A stretch of 64,000 bases of DNA from Patescibacteria group bacterium (lineage in GTDB: Bacteria > Patescibacteriota > Saccharimonadia > Saccharimonadales > JAZKJC01), in NCBI GenBank assembly GCA_040384565.1, contig JAZKJC010000003.1:87195-151194 (forward strand), read 5' to 3'. The notes beneath the pieces are model-generated. The model was not told the origin of the DNA. It made no database searches and saw only the letters and a program-made list of their open reading frames with translations. How positions within the stretch are numbered: position 1 is the first letter of the stretch; the number at the start of each line of letters is the position of its first letter. Position numbers and translations under genes: made by a program. This document shows positions 2,848 to 43,002 of the stretch, piece after piece.

Positions 2848-3117
2848 ATTATTTAAAATAGGTGCTCTAATCAAAATACATTCGTTGTACAAACCACAAC
2901 TTGTAAAGAGTTGTTACCTATAATTTGAGTCAATAATCAAATATTGCATTATAATTTGAGTTGTAATTTTGTCATCAAAATAAATAATAGACACCTCTGC
3001 CCTAAAACTTATCCACAGCTGCCTAATCTCTCTAGTCACCTTAAGGGTCTTTTAATCGTCTCAAAGATTTTTCAGCACTACTCCCCACAAACTTCAGGTC
3101 AAAAGGTCAAAACCCAA

Positions 3118-3141
3118 AGAGAACTGTTCTCTAACAGATGG
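3118..3141 (-). repeat. REP-like palindromic repeat, copy 1 (reverse complement of CCATCTGTTAGAGAACAGTTCTCT)
   Basis: 24/24 identical to 24901-24924 on the opposite strand. It contains the palindrome AGAGAAC-N-GTTCTCT. Confidence 0.8.
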
Positions 3142-3238
3142 TTAAATTACAGATCAGTCAGACACCACCGGCTATGCCGGTGGCTTGATGAGTGGGGTCG
3201 CCTAAAAGGCGATCGATCTGCCGCTACCACGTTAGTTG

Positions 3239-3673: not shown

Positions 3674-3724
3674 ATTGATCCTTTCGCGAGTGGTAGCGAG
3701 CAGATCTAAGAAACAGTCTAGAGC

Positions 3725-3757
3725 AATAATACCCAGGCTAATCGCCTGGGTATTATT
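3725..3757. other. Perfect 14-bp stem / 5-nt loop hairpin upstream of tnpA (IS200-end-like)
   Basis: AATAATACCCAGGC-taatc-GCCTGGGTATTATT. Confidence 0.7.
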
Positions 3758-3840
3758 CTGTTGGCTCGCAAAGGTCAAACCGATTCAAGTCACACTAGTA
3801 GAACTAGTGGCTTCCCGATGGGGTAGTGAATTCTTATCCA

Positions 3841-4455
3841 TTAGCGGTCAGCTAGTTCGTGCTTAATTTCTGACAACATATCGCGGTGCTCTTCGTAATC
3901 CGCCACGAACTGCAGGTAGCTCTCACTGCTATTAAACATCTCTAAGATTCGTTGCGGATGAAGCCAGACAGGTGCGTTGCCACGCTTGTAATAGGTGAGG
4001 CTGGAGTAAGGGTATGTTTTCCAGGAACGTGGGTTTAGATGAATATATCTACTGATATGTTCTAGGTAAGCCTGCGTATCAATTCTTGATGCCTTATAGC
4101 GGTTTTCGAACAAGGAGCCACTTCTCTTATACTTGAGATTAAAATAACGGCTGTAGCTAGTCATTATGCCACGCATCAGAGCTGTTAGGCCTCCTTGTTC
4201 TGCCTGGTACACCAAGATATGGAAATGGTTAGGCATAAGGCAGTAGGCAAGAACTTGAATTGACTTTTTAAAGTTGGGGTAAGCAATTCCCTGTTTGCTG
4301 ATGGTTGTTTTATCTGACAAGTATCTCTCAAATAGTTTTAGGAAATATGTGTAGTCCTTTGGCTCCAAAAAGATTGGCTGTTTGCTGGCTCCCCTGGCAT
4401 AGACATGGTAATAGGACTCTCCAGTATCTAACCTGATTGTATTGCGTGATGGCAT
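3841..4455 (-). CDS. REP-associated tyrosine transposase (RAYT)-like Y1/HUH protein
   Basis: YHVYARG.., LMPNHFHILV (HUH) and LFENRYKAS (Tyr motif) are present. Length is 204 aa. Confidence 0.8.
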   Translation of the reverse strand: MPSRNTIRLDTGESYYHVYARGASKQPIFLEPKDYTYFLKLFERYLSDKTTISKQGIAYPNFKKSIQVLAYCLMPNHFHILVYQAEQGGLTALMRGIMTSYSRYFNLKYKRSGSLFENRYKASRIDTQAYLEHISRYIHLNPRSWKTYPYSSLTYYKRGNAPVWLHPQRILEMFNSSESYLQFVADYEEHRDMLSEIKHELADR

Positions 4456-4501
4456 AACTTAACATAACTCTACCAAATATGCTAAAATCTGCAAAATCCT
4501 T

Positions 4502-4523
4502 ATCTGTTAGAGAACAGTTCTCT
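4502..4523 (+). repeat. REP-like palindromic repeat, copy 2
   Basis: ATCTGTTAGAGAACAGTTCTCT is identical to the core of copies 1 and 3. It is followed by the direct duplication CTTGAAGCCCT x2. Confidence 0.8.
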
Positions 4524-4600
4524 TGAAGCCCTCTTGAAGCCCTCCTGTTCATAATAATCTTTTTCCGCGCTTACCCCCGATGCTGGCGGCCAAGCAATCC

Positions 4601-7600: not shown

Positions 7601-10600
7601 TCCGCCAGTTCCGGAAGTAATGGTAATGTTTCCACCATTTGCACCTGACCCAGCATTGGTACCGTTATATCCCTGCGAGCCTGCTCCACCAACACCAGTA
7701 GTTAAGCTAAATGCGCCGCCAGCACCACCATTATCACCACCAAAAGTATTAATAGTACCACCTCCCCCGCCAGCGCCGGTAGTAACAGATAGTGCTCCGC
7801 CCACACCACCCACGGCACTAATAGAGTTGAAGCTAAGTCCGCCCTGCCCACCTGAACCCGTTGCAAGTGTCAGGACGCCGCCATTGCCACCGTTCATGCT
7901 GCCGACAGCTTGACCAGCCGACCCGCCATTACCAGATTGTAAACTTATAAGGCTGCCATTACCGCCAGCTGATCCGGCAACGCTAGCTCCATTTCCTCCA
8001 AACACCTGTAACACAGGTGTAGCAGCAGCTCCTGCAGTTGTAGCTGATGGCCCATCAACCTGGAGCATGGAACCTGGTGTAGAGGTGACGCCTATGCCAA
8101 CCCGGCCATTCTGATCAATCACAAACGGTGTGGTGTCACCTGAACTATCATCAACCCGCAGAGCATACCCTGTACCCAGGCTATTAATAAACATACCCCC
8201 GAAGGCACCAGTGTTTAGTTGGTCTACAGTTAATGGGTAGGTGCTATCTGAGCCGGAAGATGCAGGATTACGGATAATTATTGAGTCATCAGCTGTTGTC
8301 AGGGCAACAATAGCATCACTGCCGTCAGCGTCAGTGTTATAGGCAGATTGAAGAGTTGATGCAGCAGATATACAGTCTCCCCACGCGCTGTTTTCAAAGC
8401 AGCGGAACTTATTGGTGTTGGAGTTATAGTACGATGCGCCATTGACGCCAGTGGGATCACCGGCAGTGTTTTTTGTGTCTAGCACTAGTAGAGCAGCGGT
8501 GGCATCGGCGGTTGTATCGCCAATATAAATTCTAGAGTTTGTTGTATCTATCTGGAACAGTTCGTTGCCAGCAGTAGTCGACTGAACTACAAAGGCGGTG
8601 GTGGAGTTGGTCTGGTTGCGGAAGGTAGTAGCACCACCGTCAGCAACCTTTAGAACATCTTGGGCTGTAGTGGATGTGTCAGTTACCTTGAAAAGATCGG
8701 TGGAACCGGTCGAACTGACATGAAGAAGGGCACCAGGGGTGGATGTACCGATCCCCACATTGCCTCCGCTCGCCTGCATAGTAATATTGCCATAAGCGCC
8801 AGTCTGGCCGCTGTTACAGGATCCGCCACATCCGTCTCCTCCTCCTCCTCCTCCTACACCTGTTTGAATATTTATATTTCCTCCAGCTCCTCCGTCGGCA
8901 CCATCAAGCCCTGTACCTGCTCCGGCACTGCCTCCTTGCCCGCCTGCGCCGCTAGTTATATTAATAGCGCCACCTAAAGCACCAACGCCTCCACCGGCAA
9001 CGCCATCTGTACCATTACCGCCAGCTCCACCTGTCCCGCCGGTAAGCGTTAGTGCTCCTCCTGCTCCTCCTGTTTGCCCAAGTCCTCCGCCGGATACTCC
9101 ACCCACACCACCTGTTCCTGAAAGCATTGCAAGCAAACTGCCAGCACCACCAGCACCGGTTGTACCATTACCGCCAGTACCACCCGTGACTTGCAGGGTT
9201 TGGACGGCAGCCGCGCCAGCTGTGGCTTGGTTTGGACCAAGGATATGTAAAATTGAGGTTGGACTAGCCAGTCCAATACCCACATTGCCCGCATTATCTA
9301 TAATAAACGGTGTGCTGTCAGTGTCGGTGCCGTCATCGTTAACCCTTAGGGCATAGCCTGAGCTACCGCCAGCACTAGTTAGGAGTAAGCCGCTCTTGCT
9401 AGCGCCCGTGGCAAGTTGGGTCACCTTTAGCACGAAGTCGCTATCCGAACCACTGGCTGCCGGATTAGAAAAGATTAGTGAATCATCAGCTGTAGTCAGG
9501 GCAATCGTGGCATCAGAGCCATCAGCATCGGCGTTGTAAGCACCTTGGAGAGTAGAAGCTGAGGCGCTTGTAATACAATCCGCCCAGGCGCTATTTTCAA
9601 AGCAGCGGAACTTGTTGGTGTTAGAGTTGTAGTAGGTGGCACCATTGACACCAGTTGGGTCGCCGGCAGTGTTCTTGGTGTCAAGCACCAGTAGAGCGCC
9701 GGTGGCATCGGCTGTAGTGCTGCCGACCTGCAGACGTGAGTTCGTAGTGTCGGCTACTAGCAAGTTGGTACCAGCGGCGTTTTGGATCTGGAAGGCGGTG
9801 GTGGAGTCGGTTTGGTTGCGGAAGGTGGTGGCTCCGCCATCAGCGATATCAAATACATCCCTGGCTGTCGCGGTCGTGTCAGTAACTCTAAGGAGTGAAC
9901 TTCCTCCGCCAGTTCCTGAGACATGGAGCAGCGCGCTGGGGCCAGAGAGCCCTATGCCGACCCGACCAGCTGTAACTGTAGAGAACAGTATATTGCCGGG
10001 AGTACCGGAGGTAGTGCCGCCATCAATATATACATTGCCACCATTCGTACCATTGCCACTAGCACCGCCCTGAATTCTTACGTTGCCACCCGGTGACACA
10101 CCGCTGCCACCACTGCCACCATTTAGGTTTAGGTCACCGCCTGTGCCACCGGCGTTAGCACTGCCAGCTTGAACTGTTAAATTATAACCGTTACCACTGG
10201 ATGCTTGGGCTACGCTTATGGTGCGGTTAGCGCCTTGGCTCAGGGTGTGGTTACCGGTTGAGATAAGGTTACCACTGGCTAGGATATTGCCTGTGCTATC
10301 GACCTGGAATTGGTTTGAGGCACCGACACTTAGCATTGATGCTGGGGCTGTAGTTCCGATGCCCAGGGATCCGCTTTGATCAATCCGTGCGCGCTCAGTA
10401 GTTGAGCAGCCGTTACAGCGGGTGGCGAAAACCAAGGCGTTGGAGTCAGTTCCAGTCCGAACAGCGCCGATGGTGGCATTGCCGGAGTTGGCCGCGGCAC
10501 TGGAGGCAAAGCTAATGCCGACGAAGCCAGTTGAGTTAGTGTTGGTATTACGAATGGTTAGACCCTGCATTAAGGACGTTGTAGTATAAGCTGCCGCGCC

Positions 10601-13600
10601 GGTGTCAGCCGTAATGTATGCCGAATTCGCACTAGTAGATAGGACTTCGAAGGCAGCGTTGGGATTAGAAATGTTTATACCCACTCGGCTTCCGGTGATG
10701 TTTACTACACCATTGGTGGTCTGTAGATTTATGTTGCCATTCACTCCATCGCTGTTACCGCCCGTACCTTGCGCACCAGCCTGCAACGTAATGTTGCCGC
10801 CGTTGGGTCGAGCAACTAAGTTGCTACTGTCGCCGCCGTTGCCAGCAGTGATTGAAATATTTCCTCCGTTGCCACCAAAGTTACCGCTTGAGCCATTTCC
10901 GCCTGTGCCACCGCTGAGTACTAGATCTGCGCCAACGCCCCCAGGCCCGCTTGAGCCATTGCCGCCCGTACCGCCAACCACGCGCAAGGCAACTGGTGCA
11001 GCGCCACCAGTCCCAGCATTGTTGCCGTTTGCACCAGCCACATGTAGTGTAGCGGTTGGGTTGGTAGTCCCTATGCCGACGTTGCCACCAGCCCCCTGCA
11101 AAACCAAGTTGCCCGTGCTAGATAAATTCCCATCACTCAAAGTTGTGCTCCCTGCCCCCGTCACTACCCCGCCCAGGAAGTAGCCCTGGAAGTAGCGGTT
11201 GGTGTCGGTACTATAGGCTGAACTTGTCGCACCAATGCTTTGAGCGTTGACCTTAGTGATGGTTATATCAGCATCGTAGCTGACGGCTGGAGAAACCGTT
11301 AGGGTGGTAGTGCCGCCACCTGAGACAATACGAGTGTAGTAATCCTGGCCAGCGTTATTGATCCAGATGATGTCGTTGTTGGCAAAGCTGCCAGCCGCGT
11401 CAATAGTGACGGTTGTAACGTTAGTACGGGGTGTAGACTCAGTATTGCCGGTTGTGCCGGTGGTAGTAACGTTGCCTTGGACAAAGCCACTGGAATCAAC
11501 CTTGAAGAGGTCACCGGAGCCGACTGTCAGAAGCGCTGCCGGTGAGGCATCACCGATGCCGACGTTGCCCAATGCCGTAGTTCCGTCATGAGCGAGAATT
11601 ACGTTACCGTTACCTCCTGCAGCTGATCCGCCCGCCACATACACATTATTTCCGGAACCTATTGCCCCGCCATTACCGCCTCTTAATATAAGCCTCCCTG
11701 GTGTTCCGCCGGTGTTAGCACCTGCTACAATAGTAAGGTTACCTCCGCTATTTCCACCCACAACAATCGATCGGTCTACTCCGCCACCAAAGGTAAGATC
11801 AGCAGCTAATGTAGTCGTACCGATCCCCACCTGTCCATTTTGATCAATCACAAACGGTGTGGTGTCACCTGAACTATCATCAACCCGCAGAGCATACCCT
11901 GTACCCAGGCTATTAATAAACATACCCCCGAAGGCACCAGTGTTTAGTTGGTCTACAGTTAATGGGTAGGTGCTATCTGAGCCGGAAGATGCAGGATTAC
12001 GGATAATTATTGAGTCATCAGCTGTTGTCAGGGCAATGATGGCATCTGAGCCATCGGCGTCGGCATTGTAGGCGGATTGGAGGGTTGTCGAGCTTGCACA
12101 GTTATTCAGCGTTAAAAGACAGAAAGTATCTGTAGTGGCTGAGCTATTGGGAATAGTGTAGGTCCTGGAGGCAGTGGGGTCGGCTGCTGTGATGGTGAAG
12201 TTATTAGCGTCATTTGTTGTGCCCTCAAACTTCAGATCGCCGGCGCTGGTGACACCGAACTTGTCATTATTACCGACGGTTAGTAAATAGGCTGGGCTGG
12301 TGTCGCCGATGCCGACGTTGCCACCAAGAAATTGAGCAACATAGGAATTGCCGGTTGCATTAGTTGGGGCATTCACCGTCAAACCATAGGCATTGGTGGT
12401 AATGCCCGCAGCACCAACCGAAAAATTTTGAATCAGTAGCGCGTGTGAGTTTGTGATGGTGGCGTTAGAACCTGTTCCTGGCGGGCCGGTAATTGCAGCA
12501 GTGGCAGCATTGGTAATAGTGCTGCTGCCGGTAAAGTTATAGGTTGGAGCCTGTATCACGAATGCACGTTGCGTAGCTAGGGCTCCGGTGGCAAATGATA
12601 CTGAACGGGATAGGTCAAAATCAACATCAATTGACTCGGTGGAGGCGGTTAGGCCGGTATGAGCACCTGCCCTTACCCGCAGTGCCAAGGGAGTCCCAGA
12701 AGTAGCCACCTGCTGCAGGACGTGCAGAGTGGCATTCGGGGTATTTGTGCCTATGCCGACTTTGCCAATCGCGGCAGCTGCACCAATGTCATAGGCCAAA
12801 ATGGTATTGCCGTGTAGCGTACCAACCACATCGGTCCCCCCGTACAGATAGGCATTTCCGCCGTTGCCGCCTGAAATTCCGCTGTTGCCGCCATGAAGGT
12901 CCAAATAGCCGCCGGCTGCCGGACTGGTGGGCCCAAAACCCTTGGCCGCATGAATGCCCAAATTGCCACCGGTTTGCCCACTGGCCCCAACTGACGGCGG
13001 TAAGATGGTGATAACCCGATTGCCATTGCCAAAAGTCAGGGCTTGGCTGGGATTTTCCAGCGCCGTCATGGCGATGCCGACCCGGCTATTAGTCGTATCA
13101 ACTACCAGCGCCTTCTCTCCGGCGGTTGCAAGCACCTGGAAAGCGGTGGTGGAATTGGCTAATTGATTCTGCAAGGTGGTATGGCCATTACGATTGACGG
13201 TAAAAGAAGCGGAGCCAATACCGCCGGCATCATTATCACTCACTAACTGCAGGAGGTTGCTGCTAGTGCGGGCATTAACCGTCAACACCGTTTCACCGAC
13301 ACCGGAGTTATGTCCGGTTAAGACAGTCAGGCCGTCATTCACAGCAAGATTAGTGCTATCCCACAAACTAACCCCAGTAAAACCACCGCTGACACTGATG
13401 TTAAAGGCGTCAACCCCAGCGTTTTGAACTGAAAATTTACCATTCGAACCACTAGCAATATTGACGAAAAAACTGCTATCGGTAGTGGTATTGGCCAGTG
13501 TAACCAAAAGGTTGCGAGCGTCAGTTGTGGTAATGGTATTGCCGGCGTTGTAGGCAGCTTGTAACGTTCCGCCGGTACCGGTGCCGAAGCAGTTACCTAG

Positions 13601-16600
13601 TGATAATAAGCAAAAAGTATCGTTGCTGGTAATAATAGGGACATCGACTATACGGTTGGCAGCCTGATTAAGACTGCGAATACTCAAAGTTTGGCCACTG
13701 CCATCATGCAGAGCCAATGAACCTTGTAACGCCGCTGTACCAACAGTGGCAGTGGCACCCTGAACTGCTAAGGTACCGGCAATGGTAGTATTGCCACCGG
13801 ACGTCACGTCAAAGTTGGTGAAGTCTATGACTGCCGTGGTGCCTTGCAACGTCTGGGCAGCCAAATCAATACCCCCACCAGCGACAATCTGGTTATTGAA
13901 CGTCTTAACACCAGCAAACGCCTGAGCACCAGTGGTAACAGCACCGGCTTCGGTGGCAGAAGCATTGCCAATAGCTAATGTAATATCATCTGGGTTTGTT
14001 ACAACGTTCAAAGTCCAAGTGACAGACGCCGACGTACCAGTGGCAGCCGTACTGAGGAAATTAGCCCCCGTTGCTCCAGTTCCGTTAACAGACACATCGT
14101 CACCCGTGCCGGTACCGTCAGTGGCACAGATCCAGGTGTTGCCAGTGGTTTCGTACTTCAGGACTTCGCCGTTAGCACAATCAATTAGAGATAGGCCATT
14201 GCCGTCAACTTCCAGACCTTTGCTGGCTTGGAGTGTCAGGGCGATGTCATTAGCATTCGCTACAATACCGCCATTGGCCGAAGCCACGTTTAGGGTTAGT
14301 ACTCCAACTGTACCACCGCCTGTTAAGCCGGAGCCAGCCGTGACACCAGTGGTGGCATGGCTAGCGACATTGCCGCTGGTCACAACCGTGCCGCCCTCAT
14401 TCAAGGTAAATGTCTGATCAGCCGCCAGATCGGCAACATCCAGAATGGCGTAGAAAGCACCGGACGATTCACGAATCTTCAGCTCTGAGCTGGAGTTATC
14501 CAGAGTAATATCAAAGGCACCACTTTGCAGCCAGTCAGCCGTCAGGTTACTAAGCGCAATCGTCGGCGTACCGCCTTCAGTGTTAGAGGTTCCAGATATA
14601 CCGTTCCCGGCGGTAATTGTGGCTACATAATTGCCATTTGTATCTGTACCAAGATCAATCGTGCCGACACTGACCACCCCGGAGCCGTCGACTTCCAGAA
14701 AGCCGTTTGTGAGGCTTGAGAAAGTGGCAGTACCGCCGACAGTTATGCCGCCGGTGCCTTGGAGGAGTCCTGAGCCGGCATTAACGCCAACTGCCGTGAC
14801 TGCACCGGCACTACTGACATCAAAGTTGGTAAAGTCAATGACAGCCGTGGTACCTTGCAGAGTTTGAGAACCTAAGCTAATACCCCCACCAGCGACGATT
14901 TGGTTGTTGAAAGTCTTAACGCCGGCAAATGTCTGGGCGCCAGTGGTGACAGCTCCTGCCTCAGTGGCCGAGGCGTTACCAATAGCTAGGCTAATGTCAT
15001 CTGGCGTAGAGGCTCCGACGAGCGTCCAGGTAGTGGCCGTAGAAGTACCGGTCGCGGCCACGTTGAGGAAGTTAGCATCATCTGCAGCTGTGCTGTTGAC
15101 GCTAATGTTATCGCCTGAACCGCCACCGTTATCGGCAGCGCAGGCCCATTGGTTGGAGCCGTTATATTTAAGGACCTCGCCACTACTACAATCAATCAAT
15201 GACAAGCCGCTGCCGTCGACTTCCAGGCCTTTGTTGGCTTGGATTGTTAACGTTATGTCATCAGCATTTACAACGATTCCACCATTACCGGAAGCAACCG
15301 TCAGCGTCGCGTTACCGGAAGCTGCGCCGCCAGTTAGACCAGCTCCGGCAGTAACATCAGTGATCACACCGCTGACTTCGCCTTCTGTAATGCCGCCGTC
15401 TAAGACCTCTAGTTCGACGCTTGTGAGTGTTGCACCTGAGGTAATGATACTGTTGGCACCAATGCTTAAATTACTCGTTAACGTCAGGCCGGCAAACTGC
15501 GGCGTTGCGGCTGTGCTGATGCCTTGTATTGTATTTATAACACCACTTGCTGCTGAGAAGTTCGTGGCGTTGAAGGCGGCAATACCTTTAGTTGTGCCGT
15601 CTGCCGCCGCATCATCAATGGTAATAACGTTACTGGAACCCGTGGCGTTATTGATAGTCACAGCCGGGCCAGTTTGACCGTCAATACTTGTCAGACCGCC
15701 ACCGCCACCACCGCCTAAACAGGCATCCCAGAACAGCGTGCCTGAGCCATCTTGGGCCTTGAGACATTGGTTAGCGCTACCAACGGCACCGGGCAATAGT
15801 AGTGAATAGCTGGTACTCACATCAGGCAGATTCAAAGTAATAGTCTCTCCGTCACCGTCGTGCAATACAATCGATGCGCCTTGGGTAATCGTACCGAGTG
15901 TGGCACTGCCGCCTTGAACGATGATGTCAACACTTGTGGTTACATTAGTGCCATCATCAGAAATAGTCGAATCGACGATATTATTACCGCCTACCCCGAA
16001 TTTACTCAGTTGGTTTTGGGTACCGCTACCGGTGATACCGCCGCCGGCGCCGGCGCAGTTGCCACTATCCAAACAGATTGTGCCGGTACCGGTCGTGTAA
16101 TTAGGCAAGGTGTAGGTTCGGTCAGCTGTCAGGTCACCGACGTCTAGCGTGCCGTAGAAGGCCCCAGATGATTCCCTAATAGATAATTCACTGGCGGCGT
16201 TATCCAGCACGATGTCAAAGGCGCCAGTCTGGGTCCAGTTAGCCGTCAGATTACTGAGGCCCAGCGCCGCCGTCCAGCCCTCACCGGGCGTCCCCGTAAC
16301 TGCAATACCGTTGCCGCCGGTGGTGCTGGCCTGATAGTTCCCAGCCGTTTCAGTCCCCAGATCAACTTCCGTACCAAAATTGTTGGTCACGGTGATGCTG
16401 CCGCTGGCGTTACTGATAGTGATCCCCGCCCCTTGGGTAAGAGTCGCTAGGGTATAGCCCGTTCCATTACCGATAAGCAACTGGCCATTGGCGGCAGCAG
16501 AACCATTCACACCAGTCCCGCCATTACCAACCGGCAGGATACCGGTGACTTCGGCACTGGCCAGATCGACGCTTGTACCAAGTGTGGTTTGCAATGAGCC

Positions 16601-18760
16601 GCTGCTGATCGTCAAACCGGTGCCAGTCAGATCGGTGAAGGCATCGCCATTGAACGTAAAGGTGTCGCCGGTCTGAACAGCCAAGTTGCCGTTGGCCGTC
16701 AGCGTGCCGGAGAATGTTCCAGTGCCCGTGACGTCAAAATTACCGCCAAGCAGGCTCAGGTTCCGCGTGTTGTCCAGCTCAAGCGTTGAGCCGTTTTGGA
16801 GTAACCAGCTATCGGCGATAGTCTGGGCACCGCTGAAGTAAGCAATCCGGTTTGTGTTGCCCGTGCCTGTGATGCCGCTGGCCGCATCGCCGTTGTCGTC
16901 TTGACAACCAATGTTACCGGATGCATCTGTCGTCAATACACCACCATTAGCAAAGGTGGTACAGTTTAGTCCTGTTAAGCGTACTTGATCAGCACTGGTC
17001 AGGACAATGTCATTGCCGGCGCCATTGCTGGTAATGGTGGTGGTTGAACCTTGCAATAGAGCCGTTTGGCCAGTTGCCCCAACCGTTAAGGCACCGCCTG
17101 GAGTAATGCTTAACGCCCCGCTGCTTTGCAATAGCGGCGTTGTCACACTTGAGGAAAACGTAGGGTTGTTGATCGTATTAATGCTGTAGGTGCTATTGGC
17201 ACCGCCATCGGAACCGATTAGATTGCCGGTAGGCGTAATAGCTCGTTCACCTGTCAGTGTACCGTCATTGCCTACGGTCACATAGGCTGCACTGTTGGGC
17301 GCCCCGGTGGTATCGCTATCTGTATCACAAGCCCACTGGTTAGCACCATTATATTTGAGGATTTGGTTGAGTCCACAATCGATTAGCGACAGGCCGTTGC
17401 CGTCAACTTCCAAGCCTTTATTGGCTTGTATCGCAAGCGTAATGTCATCAGCGTTTACCGTAATTCCATTTCCGGCACCGATGTTGAGGGTTGTGGCTGC
17501 GCCAAGCGCGACACTACCGCCATTCGTTAGACCGCTACCGGCTGTAACTGTCAGTGAAGAATTGACCAGCTCGAGGTTAGAGATTGTGGGACCCAGTAGT
17601 GACACATTGGCACTAAGCCGTAGATCATTAAGTGTTCCGCTAGCCATATTGCTGGCATTAAGCGCCGTTAAGGCCGATCCATTGCCAGAAAAGGCCACCG
17701 CACTGATATTGCCACTAGCGCTCAAGTCTCCAGCGACTGATACAACACCAAGCGCCTGTGACAATAGGGAATTCTCAATATTTGTAGCTGAGGTAAAGAC
17801 TGGAATTGTGCCAGCAGTTCCGCCACCAGTAGTCACCCCAGCCCCAGCGCCACCGTCATCATTGGCACAAATAACCTGGCCAGAACCATTAGTGGTTAGC
17901 GTACCGCCATTGGTCAGGACACTACAGTTCAGTGGCAATGTTAGCATTCCGCTCATTGACAGATTACCGTTGAGCGTCAAACCAGCAAAGGTTGGTGAGC
18001 TGAGCTGCGCCAAATCCTGGGGCCCAGCCAAGGTAATTGTGCCGTTAGCGGTTGATACTGTAATTTGATTGGCTGTCCCCTGGACAGTGACCACGCCGAC
18101 TTGATTGTTGACCAGACTGGAGGCTGGAATTGCCGGCACAACCACCTGGCCAAGCCGGTTTTGCAGCAAAGCAAGAGTAGCGTTGGTTTGATTGAGAGCA
18201 GCCTGAGTCGCTAGGTTACAGTTATTACTATCCAAACAGAGCGTGCCCGAAGCGTTAGGTAAAATAAACGTTTGGTCGGCTGTGGAATTTTGCGTTTTTA
18301 GAGTGGTCGCGTAGTTGCCATTTGAGAATCTCAACTCGCCGCGGGTCGCCAGGTCACCGTTTACCAGCAATGATTCACGGGCAGTGTTTAGCTCTTTGGG
18401 GATTGTCGATAAATTGGCGTCTTTGAGAGAGATGTCTTGGGGTGTAATTGTCGCTTGCTGGGCTAGTTGATTATCCGAGCCGCGCCGGGCAAAGAACAAT
18501 ATGCTTGCCCCCGTAATTAGTATTACAAATATGGTGATCCCGATTGAAACAATCATGGCCTTTCGGCGGGAGAAAGAAAATCCTCGAAAGTTTGACTCGG
18601 AAGAATAGGTTTGAGCCTGAGAAACAACATTTTGTTCATGCATTTCTAAGGACTCTGCTGGTGTTGGTATTTGAGCACTGTCGTAGAAACCCCCAGAAAT
18701 GGGAGTACTTACCGAGTCGTTTTGACCTGTATTGGCGGTATTAAACCGCTGTTCATCCAT
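4601..18760 (-). CDS. Giant (4,719 aa) membrane-anchored surface protein built from tail-fibre-like modules
   Basis: From the ORF track. A ~66-aa N-terminal tail precedes one TM (AMIVSIGITIFVILITGASILFF, ~18488-18556). Fibre motifs include GILPVGNGGTG and 3x GLEVDGxGLSLIDCxxGEVLKYNGSNQWAC. A repeated ~430-aa super-module runs TTAFQIQ..DTTNSR..LVLDTKNTAGDPTGVNGAxYYNSNTNKFRCFENSAW..TLQxAYNxDADGSDA..TPFVIDQNGxVGIG..GGxGGxG blocks..GNVGIGTxxPxAxLHV. The C-terminus has an ADLAEWIKY..LIGVVS..GRVPVKV block (~5245-5640) resembling a Peptidase_G2-type chaperone domain, and the last ~90 aa look like an H-type lectin. Confidence 0.9.
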   Translation of the reverse strand: MDEQRFNTANTGQNDSVSTPISGGFYDSAQIPTPAESLEMHEQNVVSQAQTYSSESNFRGFSFSRRKAMIVSIGITIFVILITGASILFFARRGSDNQLAQQATITPQDISLKDANLSTIPKELNTARESLLVNGDLATRGELRFSNGNYATTLKTQNSTADQTFILPNASGTLCLDSNNCNLATQAALNQTNATLALLQNRLGQVVVPAIPASSLVNNQVGVVTVQGTANQITVSTANGTITLAGPQDLAQLSSPTFAGLTLNGNLSMSGMLTLPLNCSVLTNGGTLTTNGSGQVICANDDGGAGAGVTTGGGTAGTIPVFTSATNIENSLLSQALGVVSVAGDLSASGNISAVAFSGNGSALTALNASNMASGTLNDLRLSANVSLLGPTISNLELVNSSLTVTAGSGLTNGGSVALGAATTLNIGAGNGITVNADDITLAIQANKGLEVDGNGLSLIDCGLNQILKYNGANQWACDTDSDTTGAPNSAAYVTVGNDGTLTGERAITPTGNLIGSDGGANSTYSINTINNPTFSSSVTTPLLQSSGALSITPGGALTVGATGQTALLQGSTTTITSNGAGNDIVLTSADQVRLTGLNCTTFANGGVLTTDASGNIGCQDDNGDAASGITGTGNTNRIAYFSGAQTIADSWLLQNGSTLELDNTRNLSLLGGNFDVTGTGTFSGTLTANGNLAVQTGDTFTFNGDAFTDLTGTGLTISSGSLQTTLGTSVDLASAEVTGILPVGNGGTGVNGSAAANGQLLIGNGTGYTLATLTQGAGITISNASGSITVTNNFGTEVDLGTETAGNYQASTTGGNGIAVTGTPGEGWTAALGLSNLTANWTQTGAFDIVLDNAASELSIRESSGAFYGTLDVGDLTADRTYTLPNYTTGTGTICLDSGNCAGAGGGITGSGTQNQLSKFGVGGNNIVDSTISDDGTNVTTSVDIIVQGGSATLGTITQGASIVLHDGDGETITLNLPDVSTSYSLLLPGAVGSANQCLKAQDGSGTLFWDACLGGGGGGGLTSIDGQTGPAVTINNATGSSNVITIDDAAADGTTKGIAAFNATNFSAASGVINTIQGISTAATPQFAGLTLTSNLSIGANSIITSGATLTSVELEVLDGGITEGEVSGVITDVTAGAGLTGGAASGNATLTVASGNGGIVVNADDITLTIQANKGLEVDGSGLSLIDCSSGEVLKYNGSNQWACAADNGGGSGDNISVNSTAADDANFLNVAATGTSTATTWTLVGASTPDDISLAIGNASATEAGAVTTGAQTFAGVKTFNNQIVAGGGISLGSQTLQGTTAVIDFTNFDVSSAGAVTAVGVNAGSGLLQGTGGITVGGTATFSSLTNGFLEVDGSGVVSVGTIDLGTDTNGNYVATITAGNGISGTSNTEGGTPTIALSNLTADWLQSGAFDITLDNSSSELKIRESSGAFYAILDVADLAADQTFTLNEGGTVVTSGNVASHATTGVTAGSGLTGGGTVGVLTLNVASANGGIVANANDIALTLQASKGLEVDGNGLSLIDCANGEVLKYETTGNTWICATDGTGTGDDVSVNGTGATGANFLSTAATGTSASVTWTLNVVTNPDDITLAIGNASATEAGAVTTGAQAFAGVKTFNNQIVAGGGIDLAAQTLQGTTAVIDFTNFDVTSGGNTTIAGTLAVQGATATVGTAALQGSLALHDGSGQTLSIRSLNQAANRIVDVPIITSNDTFCLLSLGNCFGTGTGGTLQAAYNAGNTITTTDARNLLVTLANTTTDSSFFVNIASGSNGKFSVQNAGVDAFNISVSGGFTGVSLWDSTNLAVNDGLTVLTGHNSGVGETVLTVNARTSSNLLQLVSDNDAGGIGSASFTVNRNGHTTLQNQLANSTTAFQVLATAGEKALVVDTTNSRVGIAMTALENPSQALTFGNGNRVITILPPSVGASGQTGGNLGIHAAKGFGPTSPAAGGYLDLHGGNSGISGGNGGNAYLYGGTDVVGTLHGNTILAYDIGAAAAIGKVGIGTNTPNATLHVLQQVATSGTPLALRVRAGAHTGLTASTESIDVDFDLSRSVSFATGALATQRAFVIQAPTYNFTGSSTITNAATAAITGPPGTGSNATITNSHALLIQNFSVGAAGITTNAYGLTVNAPTNATGNSYVAQFLGGNVGIGDTSPAYLLTVGNNDKFGVTSAGDLKFEGTTNDANNFTITAADPTASRTYTIPNSSATTDTFCLLTLNNCASSTTLQSAYNADADGSDAIIALTTADDSIIIRNPASSGSDSTYPLTVDQLNTGAFGGMFINSLGTGYALRVDDSSGDTTPFVIDQNGQVGIGTTTLAADLTFGGGVDRSIVVGGNSGGNLTIVAGANTGGTPGRLILRGGNGGAIGSGNNVYVAGGSAAGGNGNVILAHDGTTALGNVGIGDASPAALLTVGSGDLFKVDSSGFVQGNVTTTGTTGNTESTPRTNVTTVTIDAAGSFANNDIIWINNAGQDYYTRIVSGGGTTTLTVSPAVSYDADITITKVNAQSIGATSSAYSTDTNRYFQGYFLGGVVTGAGSTTLSDGNLSSTGNLVLQGAGGNVGIGTTNPTATLHVAGANGNNAGTGGAAPVALRVVGGTGGNGSSGPGGVGADLVLSGGTGGNGSSGNFGGNGGNISITAGNGGDSSNLVARPNGGNITLQAGAQGTGGNSDGVNGNINLQTTNGVVNITGSRVGINISNPNAAFEVLSTSANSAYITADTGAAAYTTTSLMQGLTIRNTNTNSTGFVGISFASSAAANSGNATIGAVRTGTDSNALVFATRCNGCSTTERARIDQSGSLGIGTTAPASMLSVGASNQFQVDSTGNILASGNLISTGNHTLSQGANRTISVAQASSGNGYNLTVQAGSANAGGTGGDLNLNGGSGGSGVSPGGNVRIQGGASGNGTNGGNVYIDGGTTSGTPGNILFSTVTAGRVGIGLSGPSALLHVSGTGGGSSLLRVTDTTATARDVFDIADGGATTFRNQTDSTTAFQIQNAAGTNLLVADTTNSRLQVGSTTADATGALLVLDTKNTAGDPTGVNGATYYNSNTNKFRCFENSAWADCITSASASTLQGAYNADADGSDATIALTTADDSLIFSNPAASGSDSDFVLKVTQLATGASKSGLLLTSAGGSSGYALRVNDDGTDTDSTPFIIDNAGNVGIGLASPTSILHILGPNQATAGAAAVQTLQVTGGTGGNGTTGAGGAGSLLAMLSGTGGVGGVSGGGLGQTGGAGGALTLTGGTGGAGGNGTDGVAGGGVGALGGAINITSGAGGQGGSAGAGTGLDGADGGAGGNINIQTGVGGGGGGDGCGGSCNSGQTGAYGNITMQASGGNVGIGTSTPGALLHVSSTGSTDLFKVTDTSTTAQDVLKVADGGATTFRNQTNSTTAFVVQSTTAGNELFQIDTTNSRIYIGDTTADATAALLVLDTKNTAGDPTGVNGASYYNSNTNKFRCFENSAWGDCISAASTLQSAYNTDADGSDAIVALTTADDSIIIRNPASSGSDSTYPLTVDQLNTGAFGGMFINSLGTGYALRVDDSSGDTTPFVIDQNGRVGIGVTSTPGSMLQVDGPSATTAGAAATPVLQVFGGNGASVAGSAGGNGSLISLQSGNGGSAGQAVGSMNGGNGGVLTLATGSGGQGGLSFNSISAVGGVGGALSVTTGAGGGGGTINTFGGDNGGAGGAFSLTTGVGGAGSQGYNGTNAGSGANGGNITITSGTGGIGGSACPGCEDPDGPGVNGGNGGSGGTITIQGGTGGTGGPAGTGTAGTNGSYGNVILQSSGGFVGIGDATPDAKFDIDATFSPATTGTTTNTGSGLTVSNTVNKTAGTDTTYGQQLTVTRTGATGGTINTYGLDIQATGDTGGTSTLTGLNVNVSGADTNYAALFNGGYVGIGTTTPSALLSVGTGAASNFKVNADGDITSSFTTLNGSTTANGAGTNSTTLILTSATNFDVGNYVQVDPTGANTCSGAVTVCYAKITAIATNTLTISPALTWDNGAAVVEMHIPELGGVDLTQSLTNRYGRGYFIDGIVTGNGSTYFTDKSIQQTVGGSTFNFLDNGNTSTINFGTSATTTNFSGSVTTNTLNVLGPNQPADSGAAAVQTLNVVGGIGGSGADSGNGGTGSSISLASGAGGAGGSGIQFTGNNGGNGAAAGDITISGAIGGAGGNGGEAYYEEAGCGGYCGPGGNGGNGSNGGRLVLQGGAGGNAGSGASGSINGTDGTAGLFGNITLQASGGNVGIGMSSPSRKLDVTGTWGGNVSTTATSDSATTSTVSTAALAYYVQSTDTTGDCNTADKTFNITGLPSSEGTFAYIVSKATDNNCTSNSVDVTVQINGSTIGTVTAANTVNGSVTENYTVAYINGTWRIVGLNSGTAQAANGSDTADLAEWIKYTGTKPQPGDVLTVGDSTVSVKQSTLAYDSKLIGVVSTTPHTVMGTDDGQSVVLALTGRVPVKVSLEGGAIQVGDKLTSSSTPGVAMKASGAGRIIGIALDAYDGTQTGNKVMVQLGIGYNSEPTTDIQGNSATFNTLTILGDATINNLTVTNTITTKDLTVTGTATIQNLTVSGVSTLAELTVTGNAKVQGTLTVTKLVIKDTLIIESHIISRGTAPQAVLGAASGTGTGTPIDPATMPTIALDGTDTTGTISVRTATASNRGVLATIKFNKAFERTPKIVISANDELSLLLQVYVRKTADGFELVAINPAADNTTYNFDYVILAAAPTP
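8112..8307 (-). repeat. Intragenic 196-nt repeat, copy A (100% identical to 11841-12036)
   Basis: Base-by-base comparison of the two stretches. Both encode ..TADDSIIIRNPASSGSDSTYPLTVDQLNTGAFGGMFINSLGTGYALRVDDSSGDTTPFVIDQ. Confidence 0.85.
11841..12036 (-). repeat. Intragenic 196-nt repeat, copy B
   Basis: Identical to 8112-8307. The flanks diverge immediately on both sides. Confidence 0.85.
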
Positions 18761-24866: not shown

Positions 24867-24900
24867 AATAACTCCTTGAAAATTAAAATCTGTATTTTCC

Positions 24901-24924
24901 CCATCTGTTAGAGAACAGTTCTCT
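24901..24924 (+). repeat. REP-like palindromic repeat, copy 3 (inside the ileS 5' UTR)
   Basis: CCATCTGTTAGAGAACAGTTCTCT is 24/24 identical to the reverse complement of 3118-3141. Confidence 0.8.
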
Positions 24925-24944
24925 TTCAGGGAGGATTATTACAA

Positions 24945-25160: not shown

Positions 25161-26288
25161 TTAAGTGTACAATCCGACTAGATTATCAATATCAGCCTTA
25201 ATGACCCGGCTCTCATCAATTTCGCCCACTTTATCTGACAGCATTTCATGAATTAACTGGCTACCTTCTACTTGTCCATCAATCAGCTTTAACTTGGCCA
25301 AGGCAACTGTCCTTGGCATATCGTAAAGTGGCACAACGCCAGCTTCCCGCAACTTAATTGATGTTTCATAGGCATGAAGACTGACTGGTTCACCATTTTC
25401 AGTAGCTGCAAAGAAAGTAATTCCTTTTTCATGCCTGAGCCTATTTACCAGTTCAGACACTGACATGCTGGGATTTTCAGTATTAGCCGTCCCTGAGTGA
25501 TAAAGTGTCAGTAATACAGCACGGACGTCATGGGAGGCAATATACTCCAGAAATTCATCATGGTTTGTACGTACTATGTTAACCGCGTATTCTAAAATAT
25601 CTTCTGTGCCTTGTTCTTTATCAAAAGCAGCTTCCATTTCTGCAATAATTCTATCGTCACGCTCCTTTTGTTTTTGCAGTGCTAACGTATACTCCGGATG
25701 GTCATTTGCTATGTATGTCATCGCAACATCGTTTTCGTAATCAAAAGGTTTTTTCACGACCTTTTCAGCTGGGATAAGTTTACGATGGAAGGCTACGTAT
25801 ACACCCGCAAGTACATCGCTCTCTATACTTTCGAATCCAAATTCTAGATTATCCCAGGCGTCGGTTTCAGGCAAAGATATATCATCATTTGCACCAAGAA
25901 GAATCAGTTTTGCTTTTTTACGTGTTAAAATTTCACGAACTTTTTCATTATCTAGCCGCCGTGCGAGTTGCTCCATGCCGTCTGTTCCAAACGTCACAAT
26001 CACACCTCTTGGATCACGCTCCAGAGCCTCAATAACTTTTTCCTCAATCACATCCCAGTCTTTAGGCTCAACATTTTCGCTCAATCCAGTAAAGGCTACT
26101 TCTTTGTGGCCTATACTAAACCTTTCTTCAAAATAAGGCACTCTTTGACTTATCTCACCTACTAAATCAACTACATGCCCACCTTCGCGGTAGCCTTCTG
26201 TAGTAGCAAAAGACGAGATGGTTCCCCCAGCATATACAACTTCAATCGTTGGGATGGGATTATTTAATGTTTCTTTTTCAACAGGCAT
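25161..26288 (-). CDS. L-asparaginase / GatD-family amidohydrolase
   Basis: VVYAGGTISS (Thr nucleophile motif) and TFGTDGME (HGTDTM-like). Length is 375 aa. Confidence 0.75.
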   Translation of the reverse strand: MPVEKETLNNPIPTIEVVYAGGTISSFATTEGYREGGHVVDLVGEISQRVPYFEERFSIGHKEVAFTGLSENVEPKDWDVIEEKVIEALERDPRGVIVTFGTDGMEQLARRLDNEKVREILTRKKAKLILLGANDDISLPETDAWDNLEFGFESIESDVLAGVYVAFHRKLIPAEKVVKKPFDYENDVAMTYIANDHPEYTLALQKQKERDDRIIAEMEAAFDKEQGTEDILEYAVNIVRTNHDEFLEYIASHDVRAVLLTLYHSGTANTENPSMSVSELVNRLRHEKGITFFAATENGEPVSLHAYETSIKLREAGVVPLYDMPRTVALAKLKLIDGQVEGSQLIHEMLSDKVGEIDESRVIKADIDNLVGLYT

Positions 26289-26660: not shown

Positions 26661-26689
26661 TTGACGTTACGCATATATGTGAGTACAAT
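26661..26689 (+). promoter_or_regulatory. Candidate promoter of the mazE-like gene (TTGACG-17-TACAAT), ATG 9 nt downstream
   Basis: TTGACG at 26661-26666, TACAAT at 26684-26689, ATG at 26699. No SD sequence is present. Confidence 0.45.
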
Positions 26690-26698
26690 GTAATTACT

Positions 26699-26932
26699 AT
26701 GAAAGCATTGATTATTAAGATTGGTAACTCACGTGGTATTCGTATACCCAAAAAGTTTCTGGAAGAAACGAACCTTGATGAGGTGGCTGATATTGCAATA
26801 GAAAAAGGCGCGTTGGTTATCCGCCCTGTCAAAAAGAAAGCCCTGGATGAGGGAGTGTTACTGAGCCGCTCCGCACTGGCTAAGGAATGGGATAGCCCCG
26901 AGGAAGACGCGGCGTGGGTCAAGTACCAGTGA
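26699..26932 (+). CDS. mazE: AbrB/SpoVT-fold antitoxin (MazE-like)
   Basis: MKALIIKIGNSRGIRIPKKFLEETNL.. is the typical looped-hinge-helix N-terminus. It lies upstream of a PemK/MazF-like gene. Confidence 0.8.
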   Translation: MKALIIKIGNSRGIRIPKKFLEETNLDEVADIAIEKGALVIRPVKKKALDEGVLLSRSALAKEWDSPEEDAAWVKYQ

Positions 26933-27094
26933 AACCACTTCATATCTCCCCTCCAGCCTCAAGCTACCCTGACGGCAGCCTGTACCAGTTTTGCTCGTCA
27001 ACGTATCAGCAGATACGCCTCCTCCCAAAAACTACCACAGGCTACTCGCCAGGATGGCTTTCACTTAACAGACGAAAGATATGAAGTGGTTTCA
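26930..27094 (+). promoter_or_regulatory. 165-nt spacer element between antitoxin and toxin, bounded by perfect 18-bp inverted repeats
   Basis: TGAAACCACTTCATATCT (26930-26947, includes the mazE stop) versus AGATATGAAGTGGTTTCA (27077-27094, includes the mazF GTG at 27086). A nested imperfect IR (CCTGACGGCAGCCTGT / ACAGGCTACTCGCCAGG) lies inside. Confidence 0.6.
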
Positions 27095-27409
27095 GTAGGA
27101 ACGGTTGTACTTATCAACTTCCCTTATGCCGATCTGAAGAGGTATAAAAAACGGCCTGCTGTCGTGGTGGCCGATAGTTCGCTTGATACTGTTATTTTGT
27201 GTCAAATAACAAGCCGTAAGCTACCCGATGTGCCGGCCATCCCTATAACCAAAAACGATTTTGCAAGTGGTGGGCTGCCTTTTACCAGCTACGTCCGTCC
27301 GGATAAGTTGTTCACGGTCAACGCTGATATGGCAAAGTCCAGTCAACTTGGAGTTTTGACAGACCAAAAACTAAATGAATTAAAGCTAGCTATCAAAAAA
27401 CTGTTTTAG
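27086..27409 (+). CDS. mazF: PemK/MazF-family endoribonuclease toxin
   Basis: VSVGTVVLINFPYADLKRYKKRPAVVVADS..ITS.. has the MazF/PemK N-terminal signature. Length is 107 aa with a GTG start. Confidence 0.8.
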   Translation: MVSVGTVVLINFPYADLKRYKKRPAVVVADSSLDTVILCQITSRKLPDVPAIPITKNDFASGGLPFTSYVRPDKLFTVNADMAKSSQLGVLTDQKLNELKLAIKKLF

Positions 27410-27477: not shown

Positions 27478-27711
27478 ATGAAAACAACACTATCAGAACG
27501 AGGACAGACAGCGGTACCGGCTAGAATTCGTAAACGGTTTGGGTTGCTGCCTGGACAGAAATTCCAGTGGACCGAAGATGGTGAACTTATTTACCTAAAA
27601 CCCATATCCAAAGATCCAGTAAAGGCTTTTCGTGGTTCTAGCAAAGGTGGAGGTTTGACTATGGCTCTACTTAAAGAGCGCCAAAAAGACCGAGAACGAG
27701 AACGTGAGTAG
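27478..27711 (+). CDS. vapB: AbrB/SpoVT-type antitoxin (VapB-like)
   Basis: MKTTLSERGQTAVPARIRKRFGL.. It overlaps the downstream PIN gene by 8 nt. Confidence 0.8.
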   Translation: MKTTLSERGQTAVPARIRKRFGLLPGQKFQWTEDGELIYLKPISKDPVKAFRGSSKGGGLTMALLKERQKDRERERE

Positions 27712-28123
27712 ATTTGTTCTGGATACGTCCGCTTTGTTAGCCCTGAAAGAAGACGAACCTGGCGCCTCAGCAGTTGACAAGATCCTGCTGGAACATGGAG
27801 CCAAAAATACTGTTTGGGTATGCTTTATAACGCTCATGGAGTTTTACTATATTATGCAGCGAAGATATGGTGAAGATGAGGCACGCAATGGCTATCTTAT
27901 GCTCAAAGAGCTACCTCTACGAGTGCTTGAAAGTGATGAAGAATTAGGGCTTTTGGCAGCCAATATTAAAGCTACGGCAAGCTTATCACTAGGCGATGCC
28001 TGGGTAGCCGCTACCGCACAGCGTCTGGATGCGACATTAGTGCACAAAGATCCGGAATTTGAACAGCTGAAAGACAGGATCAAACTCCAATCTCTTCCCT
28101 ATAAACCTGTGAAAAAGGCGTAG
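27704..28123 (+). CDS. vapC: PIN-domain ribonuclease toxin (VapC-like)
   Basis: FVLDTSALLAL (Asp), ..MEF.. (Glu), LGDAWVAATA (Asp) and HKDPEF. Length is 139 aa with a GTG start. Confidence 0.85.
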   Translation: MSRFVLDTSALLALKEDEPGASAVDKILLEHGAKNTVWVCFITLMEFYYIMQRRYGEDEARNGYLMLKELPLRVLESDEELGLLAANIKATASLSLGDAWVAATAQRLDATLVHKDPEFEQLKDRIKLQSLPYKPVKKA

Positions 28124-42534: not shown

Positions 42535-43002
42535 CTACGACACCTGCAAAACCAGTAATCCCAACAGAACAACCATACCACCTGCCGCACCGATAATCAT
42601 TGGTCGTCGGTACAGTGGGGTACTGATTGTTGATTTTATAGTTTGTAAAACTGGCGTAAGTCCCGCAAGCCTATCCTGTCTGGTGGAAACTGACCGAGGT
42701 TCAGGGTTAGCTGGGTGCTTTGCTAAGACCTCTTTGAGAGGAACCATCCCGCCTATAGTGGGTTCTGGTTGTTTATTTTCCAAGGTTTCGCGGCGGCGAT
42801 CAAAATATGTTTCTGGCTTATCTGCTAGGTCTTCTTCTACTTTGGCTTTGAGCTGAGGGCTCCATTCATATATAGGTGGCGGCACTGGTGGTGCATCCTT
42901 ATTATGAAGTAACCACTTCTCGGCTTTTTCTGGTTTCTCGGATTTAGCATTTGCACCAGTTGATGGCTTTATCTCTGGCAAAATGGGTACTTCTTCCGTC
43001 AT
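42535..43002 (-). CDS. Hypothetical protein with a C-terminal TM anchor
   Basis: ORF track. C-terminal IIGAAGGMVVLLGLLVLQV. Confidence 0.55.
   Translation of the reverse strand: MTEEVPILPEIKPSTGANAKSEKPEKAEKWLLHNKDAPPVPPPIYEWSPQLKAKVEEDLADKPETYFDRRRETLENKQPEPTIGGMVPLKEVLAKHPANPEPRSVSTRQDRLAGLTPVLQTIKSTISTPLYRRPMIIGAAGGMVVLLGLLVLQVS

Follow-up and report, generated by a model that had tools for sequence, protein, structure and literature searches.

Results

A mazEF locus with an 18-bp inverted repeat between its two genes

The window, by which we mean the whole 64,000-nt stretch of DNA that was analysed, carries a toxin-antitoxin locus in which a gene for a MazE-fold antitoxin lies directly 5' of a gene for a PemK/MazF toxin, with matches to PF04014 and PF02452 that both exceed the Pfam cut-offs. 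The features found at this locus are the following:

26661..26689, + strand: putative promoter-like site TTGACG-17-TACAAT, a good fit to the sigma-70 consensus and the best such fit in the region (10/12)
26699..26932, + strand: mazE, antitoxin gene, 77 aa, intact (PF04014, E=3e-7)
26930..26947, + strand: left arm of the 18-bp inverted repeat, TGAAACCACTTCATATCT
26977..27043: nested imperfect inverted repeat (16 nt, 81%; arms 26977-92 and 27028-43) with a central hairpin
27077..27094, + strand: right arm of the inverted repeat, which holds a TGA (27082-84) and a GTG (27086-88)
27086..27409, + strand: mazF, toxin gene, 107 aa (PF02452, E=5e-12)

The mazF product is present in the NCBI annotation as an identical protein of 107 aa (MES2970938.1, from a "Patescibacteria group bacterium" MAG). 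Its neighbours in the window are housekeeping genes, encoding IleRS, an asparaginase-family protein, a class II ribonucleotide reductase, NrdR, FtsZ, FtsA, IF-2, S1, PriA, Def and Fmt, and no tRNA or tmRNA was found. Since the promoter-like site ends 9 nt ahead of the mazE ATG, the mazEF mRNA probably has a very short leader or none, and there is no Shine-Dalgarno (SD) motif upstream of mazE. The same leader-poor layout is common to several other genes of the window, while further window genes have a strong SD.

Reading from the antitoxin into the toxin, the mazE stop codon TGA (26930-32) is also the opening triplet of the left arm, and the earliest ATG, GTG or TTG in the mazF frame past this stop is the GTG at 27086-88 in the right arm, with no GGAG, GAGG or AGGA motif within the 25 nt upstream. 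The two arms match perfectly (18/18) with 129 nt between them, and mazE and mazF are 153 nt apart, so that the abutting or overlapping layout of the MazEF subfamily is not seen here. On each of these points we agree with an earlier note on this DNA, which had described the perfect repeats, the left arm starting with the mazE TGA, the mazF GTG without an SD in the right arm, a spacing unusual for type II pairs and a nested imperfect repeat inside.

No other local perfect inverted repeat in the 64-kb window is as long as this 18-nt one, and the runner-up measures 14 nt. When the window was resampled 200 times with a first-order Markov model, the maximum was 16 nt, reached once, and 18 nt was never seen; the analytic expectation is about 3e-4. 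The helix that the two arms can form is thus far beyond chance.

We also considered whether the TGA might be a sense codon, in which case MazE and MazF would be fused into a single protein. This was rejected, given that TGA terminates conserved genes of the window, including those for the class II ribonucleotide reductase, PriA and YqeY.

Orthologous loci point to a very probable insertion at the mazE-mazF junction

A search for relatives of the toxin yielded 89 MazF homologs, the next-best of which is 74% identical to the MazF of the window; at this distance, no empty-site allele of the same species was found among them. The comparison of gene arrangements used the related loci for which gene layout or DNA was visible. 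In six related MazEF loci, encoding distinct MazF proteins with 57-74% identity, the two genes share an overlap of exactly 19 nt (L002, L003, the JGI contig that carries P0006, L102 and L103-L106, the last being four copies of one locus). In addition, 20 of the 22 closest MazF homologs that we aligned begin with MGxxxIGTVV or VGxxx (57-74% identity, nearly all of 109-111 aa), the N-terminus reading MGxxxIGTVVLINFP in its longer form.

At the DNA level, two orthologs show what the junction looks like without the extra sequence (TACCAGTAGG), with a triplet AGT that occurs once there and twice in the window. The junction reads TACCAGTAGGC and ATACCAATAGGAACGG in the aligned orthologs (GTACCAGTAGGCACGG in L003 and ATACCAATAGGAACGG in L002), and GTACCAGT[GAAACC...GGTTTC]AGTAGGAACGG in the window. 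In outline, the latter corresponds to TACCAGT[163 nt]AGTAGG, the extra DNA being flanked by ...TACCAGT on one side and by AGTAGGAACGG on the other. The surplus of the window over the orthologs is therefore 166 nt, which we divide into the following parts:

26928..26930: left copy of the target-site duplication, AGT (or CAGT at 26927-30)
26931..27093: inserted element, 163 nt, non-coding, 50% GC, absent from the orthologs in the DNA alignment
26930..26947 and 27077..27094: the two arms listed above, as left and right terminal inverted repeats of the element (probe sequence for the terminal repeat, GAAACCACTTCATATCT)
27094..27096: right copy of the target-site duplication, AGT (or CAGT at 27093-96)

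The element ends in perfect terminal inverted repeats of 17 bp, or of 18 bp if the flanking T and A are counted, the 18th pair of the helix being formed by these two bases of the target. The boundary between element and duplication is ambiguous, and the duplicated sequence may be read as AGT, CAGT or CAGTR, a CAGT duplication with a 162-nt element being equally valid. An IS3-type reading, with TG...CA ends and an element of 165 nt, was rejected, as it leaves a surplus of 1 nt and breaks the restored frames.

The element entered the ancestral mazE stop codon TAG, which is also codon 6 of mazF, after its T and before its A. When the 166 nt are deleted, a MazF of 109 aa is restored (VGQVPVGTVVLINFPY...), together with an unchanged MazE of 77 aa that ends with TAG; the restored sequence encodes a MazE identical to the present one. 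The present mazE stop is a TGA, whose T comes from the target and whose GA comes from the end of the element, where the orthologs have a TAG at the same position, and the C-terminus of MazE (...AWVKYQ*) aligns with the ...YQ-TAG of the orthologs. On the other side of the insertion, mazF is separated from its own ribosome-binding site, start codon and first five codons, and its first in-frame start, the GTG at 27086, is supplied by the right terminal repeat.

The protein that results from this exchange, with MVSVGTVVLINFP as its N-terminus, is 2 aa shorter than the restored ancestral MazF of 109 aa and differs from it in about three N-terminal residues. These replaced residues fall in a variable N-terminal stub of the family alignment, and 28/28 invariant columns of the alignment are retained. 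The N-terminus was judged from this alignment rather than from a solved structure; PDB sequences gave no match at E <= 0.01, whether queried with MazF by itself or with the family profile.

Taken together, the empty site of the orthologs, the duplicated target and the beheaded mazF argue for an insertion rather than for an evolved control hairpin, and we conclude with high confidence that a mobile element with repeat ends was inserted at the mazE-mazF junction. What had looked like a regulatory helix of 18 bp is two transposon ends transcribed into one mRNA. Since the terminal repeats and the duplication are both perfect, the data suggest that the insertion event was recent.

The insert has the anatomy of a MITE and a single known copy

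MITEs have been described as elements of under 500-800 bp with terminal repeats of at least 10-15 bp, target duplications of 2-10 bp and transcripts that fold into stable stem-loops (PMC10969869, PMC11602168, PMC3184786; the lower bound of about 10-15 bp on the terminal repeats is from PMC11602168). The insert at the mazE-mazF junction has terminal inverted repeats of 17-18 bp that are 100% complementary, a duplication of AGT or CAGT when compared with the empty site, a length of 163 nt, within the range of about 50-800 bp given for such elements, without coding capacity or any protein-family match, and a transcript that is predicted to fold into a stable stem-loop (-60.3 kcal/mol alone, z = -5.45 in its context). 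It is thus probably a small, non-autonomous, MITE-like element that entered a type II toxin-antitoxin operon where mazE and mazF overlapped by 19 nt.

The earlier note had held that further copies of the unit elsewhere, unrelated to toxin-antitoxin genes, would speak against a coupling device; we found none in the window or in the collections named below. Inside the window, neither the 18-mer, allowing as many as 3 mismatches, nor a BLAST search with all 165 nt recovered anything other than the element. We then turned to larger collections, the scans of which required exact matches of at least 13-17 nt (the 17-mer, a 19-nt pattern or two 13-nt arms). Among the 185,579 species-representative genomes of GTDB, which do not include the source genome, the exact 17-mer gave 40 single matches, at chance level, in unrelated taxa, none of which extended past 21 nt or had a partner arm. 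In IMG/VR, it gave 19 single matches that looked like chance; two groups of IMG/VR contigs with a weak partner arm (13/17) at a distance of 472 or 1018 nt were set aside, as they turned out to be ordinary phage genes and not IS elements. In the JGI metagenomes, a two-arm pattern (13 + 13 nt, with a gap of 116-146) had 0 matches, while the 17-mer followed by YY, a 19-nt pattern, had 37 matches at chance level, none of them past about 25 nt. The element had no match among the PLSDB plasmids in distant mode, and its six-frame peptides, with all open segments joined into one query, gave nothing at E <= 10 against 5.8 billion protein clusters. There is also no DDE transposase encoded in the window, whose only transposases are of the IS200-type Y1 kind. 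The combination of a "GA..." end and a 3-bp duplication may be IS5-family-like.

As far as searched, the element is therefore an orphan, and the MITE label that we give it here, from the sequence comparisons, draws on its anatomy and on the empty site, not on copy number. Whether it belongs to a true multi-copy MITE family is, in our estimate, evenly balanced. The proposal of the earlier note that the segment could be a MITE-like insertion thus gained the empty site, the target duplication and an old mazF start that is still visible at 26914, and lacked the second copy that would make it one of a family.

The toxin start codon is predicted to be buried, and an element-derived reading frame ends next to it

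RNA folding predictions agree with the earlier note in that the toxin start would be sequestered in the 18-bp helix. The 16 internal pairs of the helix each have a probability of at least 0.997, the terminal pairs being weaker (0.55 and 0.92); the energy of the duplex is predicted to be -26.5 kcal/mol and the GTG at 27086 has P(unpaired) = 0.000. A stretch of 231 nt has a predicted fold of -77.9 kcal/mol (z = -5.45), and the 163-nt insert alone would form, as RNA, a single long hairpin. This structure does not have the marks of a conserved regulatory RNA, as the helix and the spacer are absent from the orthologous loci and no Rfam family matches it: searches done locally at E <= 1 and over the whole window at the gathering threshold returned only a spurious lncRNA match (E = 0.66).

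Two further features of the + strand bear on how ribosomes could reach mazF:

26900..26906, + strand: Shine-Dalgarno-like GAGGAAG of the ancestral mazF start, now serving a 56-codon ORF
26914..27084, + strand: 56-codon ORF, made of the ancestral mazF start and codons 2-5/6 (MGQVPV), then the whole insert

The GAGGAAG is located 7 nt upstream of the GTG at 26914, and the orthologs have GAGGAAG or GAAGAGG. The ORF opens with GTG-GGT-CAA-GTA-CCA-GTG, that is MGQVPV, which matches the N-terminus of the MazF family that is now missing from mazF. It then runs through the left arm and the core and covers most of the right arm, ending at the TGA at 27082-84, which stands 1 nt before the GTG at 27086; its 56-aa product has no Pfam match. 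A stop and a start that are 1 nt apart make up a classic geometry for termination-reinitiation. In addition, mazE and the body of mazF are now in the same frame, with the TGA at 26930-32 as the sole stop between them (166 = 3 x 55 + 1).

From this arrangement, we propose how the toxin may be made. Independent initiation at the GTG at 27086 would be very poor, because this codon has no SD and is fully paired. Ribosomes would instead start at the old mazF site, on the GTG at 26914 with its SD GAGGAAG, and melt both arms as they move along the 56-codon ORF; having terminated at the UGA at 27082-84, they would reinitiate 1 nt downstream at the GTG at 27086. MazF would then still be produced, chiefly by this route and at a lower level than the ancestral one. 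Ribosomes that halt at the mazE UGA might add a little MazF by opening the left arm, and rare read-through of the UGA at 26930-32 would yield a fusion of MazE, a linker and MazF as a minor route. The net effect would be a lowered toxin:antitoxin ratio, and hence an insertion that is tolerated. Reinitiation after the 56-codon ORF is most likely the source of any MazF that is made; that MazF is indeed still translated in this way, and not silenced, we hold to be about as likely as not.

Silencing by the same insertion is the alternative that survives best. According to this explanation, translation of mazF has ceased, and what is left is a toxin-antitoxin pair that was disabled recently and is heading for decay. 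It fits the lack of an SD, the predicted burial of the start codon in a helix of -26.5 kcal/mol and the failure of a gene caller to call mazF on the Logan contig. The perfect repeats and duplication also suggest that there has been too little time for decay, and an intact ORF proves nothing in this respect: since the insertion looks recent, the intact mazF is weak evidence of function and may merely reflect that recent date. However, an ORF with a good and conserved SD ends 1 nt before the GTG at 27086, in a geometry suited to termination-reinitiation, and the substitute N-terminus of MazF lies in a variable part of the family alignment. We therefore hold silencing to be possible, somewhat short of probable.

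The earlier note had favoured another explanation, in which the spacer and the helix form a built-in device for translational coupling, selected so that the left arm is opened by the ribosome that finishes mazE, which thereby licenses mazF initiation. The helix is real, and the start codon is buried in it as that proposal requires. The part concerning the ribosome is physically possible too: given the known footprint of the ribosome and the position of its helicase, we estimate that termination would melt some 9-11 pairs at the start of the helix, those of the GTG among them. However, when positions 26912-26941 were blocked in the prediction so as to mimic a ribosome halted at the mazE stop, the GTG re-paired elsewhere (P unpaired 0.04), and there is no SD with which a fresh 30S subunit could initiate de novo. 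As to the origin of the device, the helix and the 153-nt spacer are missing from the six canonical MazEF loci, all of which have the 19-nt overlap, and neither a target duplication nor a beheaded 5' end of mazF would be expected of a designed spacer. An evolved coupling hairpin is hence very unlikely.

Other origins of the repeat

The window contains two Y1_Tnp genes (3239-4455), 23 kb away from the insert, and one may ask whether a Y1 (HUH) enzyme mobilised it, in the manner of IS200/IS605 or REP-RAYT elements. A single-stranded insertion 3' of a CAGT would give an apparent duplication that is in fact the 3' end of the element, and the 166 nt can equally be written as a target CAGT followed by an element ending with CAGT. 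IS200/IS605 elements carry a separate subterminal hairpin at each end, have no long terminal inverted repeats and make no duplication. This anatomy is not that of the insert, which forms a single extended hairpin, ends in perfect repeats of 17 bp and has a duplicated AGT. Nor is there any sequence similarity between the insert and the repeats of 38-39 nt on either side of the Y1 genes. We judge such a mobilisation to be very improbable.

An invertible DNA segment was the second alternative put forward in the earlier note, with the 18-bp repeats acting as invertase sites that flip the 129-nt core. Perfect inverted repeats around a short segment would suit it, and the arms being identical, the mazE stop and the mazF start would both survive an inversion. 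Against this idea, no invertase or recombinase was found among the ORFs of the window that were scanned, and the target-site duplication and the empty site of the orthologs favour transposition; the segment is also in one orientation in both available assemblies, although these may derive from the same reads. Inversion is, in our view, even less credible than the Y1 route.

Least credible of all is an assembly artefact, whether a fold-back or a chimeric join, which is conceivable in a metagenome-assembled genome but sits badly with a 129-nt core that is unique and does not copy the flanks, with a clean 3-bp duplication at a codon-exact position and with a sequence that is identical in two sources, the protein set of the NCBI MAG and the Logan assembly of run SRR26324625 (841/841 nt in the latter, which may share reads with the MAG and is perhaps not independent of it).

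Discussion

The insertion that we propose can be compared with several families of small mobile elements. The MITEs of bacteria, such as Correia/CREE of Neisseria, ERIC, RUP, MITEAba12 and Nezha, have terminal inverted repeats, a short duplication, no transposase and a long stable hairpin in common with the insert at the mazE-mazF junction. By analogy, their co-transcription with neighbouring genes and their ability to alter the expression of these genes may apply to it as well. Correia and ERIC elements duplicate TA, and the insert duplicates AGT or CAGT. The hairpins of Correia transcripts are reported to be cut by RNase III. These families have many copies per genome and some have a known parent IS, whereas the insert has one known copy and no parent was found for it in our searches. 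In size, it falls into the same class as Correia elements, of about 104-157 bp, and Nezha elements, of about 130-170 bp (PMC3184786). Its location is less usual: about 90% of prokaryotic MITEs are intergenic (PMC11602168), while this one is inside a gene overlap.

In this last respect, the insert is closer to the Rickettsia palindromic elements, which are palindromic sequences of ~150 bp that insert within coding sequences and leave the gene working (PMC10969869). Both these elements and other intragenic MITEs are, like the insert, small, palindromic and intragenic. The Rickettsia elements are nevertheless inserted in frame and add a peptide to the protein, whereas the insert described here is out of frame (166 nt) and replaces the start codon with one from its own terminal repeat.

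As for the operon itself, it resembles canonical MazEF/PemIK operons in that the antitoxin precedes the toxin behind a single upstream promoter-like site. It differs from its MazEF orthologs, in which a 19-nt overlap places the SD of the toxin inside the antitoxin gene, by a 153-nt gap and a toxin gene without an SD of its own. In canonical MazEF operons, antitoxin and toxin genes overlap and are translationally coupled; here, any coupling must pass through an element-derived ORF of 56 codons. The result recalls leader-ORF systems of termination-reinitiation, which also have a stop and a start that are 1 nt apart and a downstream start held in a structure that the upstream ribosome opens. To judge from the sequences compared, the arrangement in the window would be an accidental product of transposition and not a conserved one.

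Toxin-antitoxin loci commonly contain inserted mobile DNA. A second interruption is present among the loci that we compared. The homologous locus L101 carries an unrelated insert of 1275 nt, 7 nt further downstream than the insert of the window, with a 328-aa ORF of unknown family, a 6-bp direct repeat on its flanks and an intact mazF that has a substitute start. The mazE/mazF junction is thus interrupted in 2 of the 8 distinct loci examined, by unrelated inserts 7 nt apart, and in both cases mazF is intact with a substitute start. This hints that the translation-initiation region of the toxin may be a preferred or tolerated site for attenuating insertions. A bolder idea is that the insert in the window has been co-opted as a translational governor, MazF being made only through the 56-codon leader and reinitiation so that a low toxin:antitoxin ratio is fixed, and that interruption of the junction is a recurrent, selected route of attenuation in this MazEF clade. 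We regard this combined proposal as unlikely, if worth stating.

The finding opens no major question and is mostly ordinary, its neat features being that the insert sits exactly in a stop codon where two genes overlap, that both ORFs are kept and that a coupling through a leader ORF would have arisen by accident. For this Patescibacteria genome, it indicates recent activity of a transposable element with repeat ends, which is an orphan in the collections searched. For the MazEF family, it means that a long spacer between mazE and mazF has an ordinary explanation here, namely a transposon scar rather than a designed RNA switch. It also provides a codon-exact case of a small mobile element that sits in a gene overlap and leaves both genes readable: the element rebuilds the stop codon of the antitoxin and donates the start codon of the toxin, and it would in this way rewire the translational coupling between the two genes.

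A second mazEF locus interrupted at the mazE/mazF junction

On a Logan assembly contig (L101; SRR28401769, 2112 bp), we found a homologous mazEF locus that is also split at the mazE/mazF junction (412-1698), with an insertion point located 7 nt downstream of that in the window and with a MazF protein (P0017) sharing 67% identity with the window MazF. The 1275-nt insert of L101 is unrelated to the window insert and contains a single ORF of 328 aa on the opposite strand, for which Pfam and PHROG searches gave no match. No terminal inverted repeats were found on this insert, which has a 6-bp direct repeat (GGTACG) on both sides. To its left, the old mazF start is still present (MGSIAVGT), and to its right, mazF is intact and begins at a new ATG start (MLSIGT...).

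In the window itself, the ancestral mazF start at position 26914 is GTG versus ATG in both orthologs compared (L002 and L003). Read in the overlapping mazE frame, this A-to-G change exchanges one codon for a synonymous one (GCA to GCG), and it would weaken initiation of the toxin, or now that of the 56-codon ORF.

Genes and repeats around the window mazEF locus

Since a second toxin-antitoxin pair (27478-28123) lies directly downstream of the window mazEF, the two pairs are a small toxin-antitoxin cluster, which is flanked by an asparaginase-family gene and a class II ribonucleotide reductase gene. The second pair consists of:

Antitoxin, AbrB/MazE-like, 77 aa (MazE_antitoxin, E=1.6e-4, under the Pfam cut-off)
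Toxin, PIN-domain, 139 aa (PF01850)

There is an 8-nt overlap between these two genes, and the pair has a separate promoter-like site (TTGTAA-17-TAAAAT).

Many window genes lack an SD and display, 5-10 nt ahead of their start codon, a -10-like hexamer (TACAAT, TATAAT or TAAAAT), as at:

25161-26288, minus strand
26699, plus strand
27478, plus strand
42535-43002, minus strand

Others, such as those for ribonucleotide reductase, IleRS and IF-2, have a strong GGAG-type SD, and the occurrence of both kinds of start suggests that leaderless and SD-led mRNAs are mixed in this organism.

The window also carries two transposase genes within 3116-4524:

3239-3778, IS200-type Y1 transposase gene 1 (PF01797, E=1e-34)
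3841-4455, IS200-type Y1 transposase gene 2 (E=3e-11)

They are bordered on either side by a 38-39-nt inverted repeat that includes the palindrome AGAGAACTGTTCTCT, and a third copy of this repeat (92%) is found at 24888-24926, where 22 nt separate it from the IleRS start codon downstream. Genes and repeats together resemble a unit of the REP/RAYT-like or IS200-like kind, whose repeat also occurs as a dispersed solo copy; there was no Rfam match.

Two giant ORFs are extensively repetitive internally, with repeats of roughly 350-530 nt, and their GC content (52-55%) is above that of the rest of the window; both probably encode large repetitive surface proteins:

4601-18760, minus strand, 4719 aa
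49948-63882, minus strand, 4644 aa

Annotation of the interrupted toxin gene

On the identical Logan contig (L001 10234-10780; SRR26324625), neither mazF nor the 56-codon ORF was called by the gene caller, unlike in the NCBI pipeline, which did call the 107-aa MazF. Because of the insertion, this toxin gene is easily overlooked by automatic annotation.
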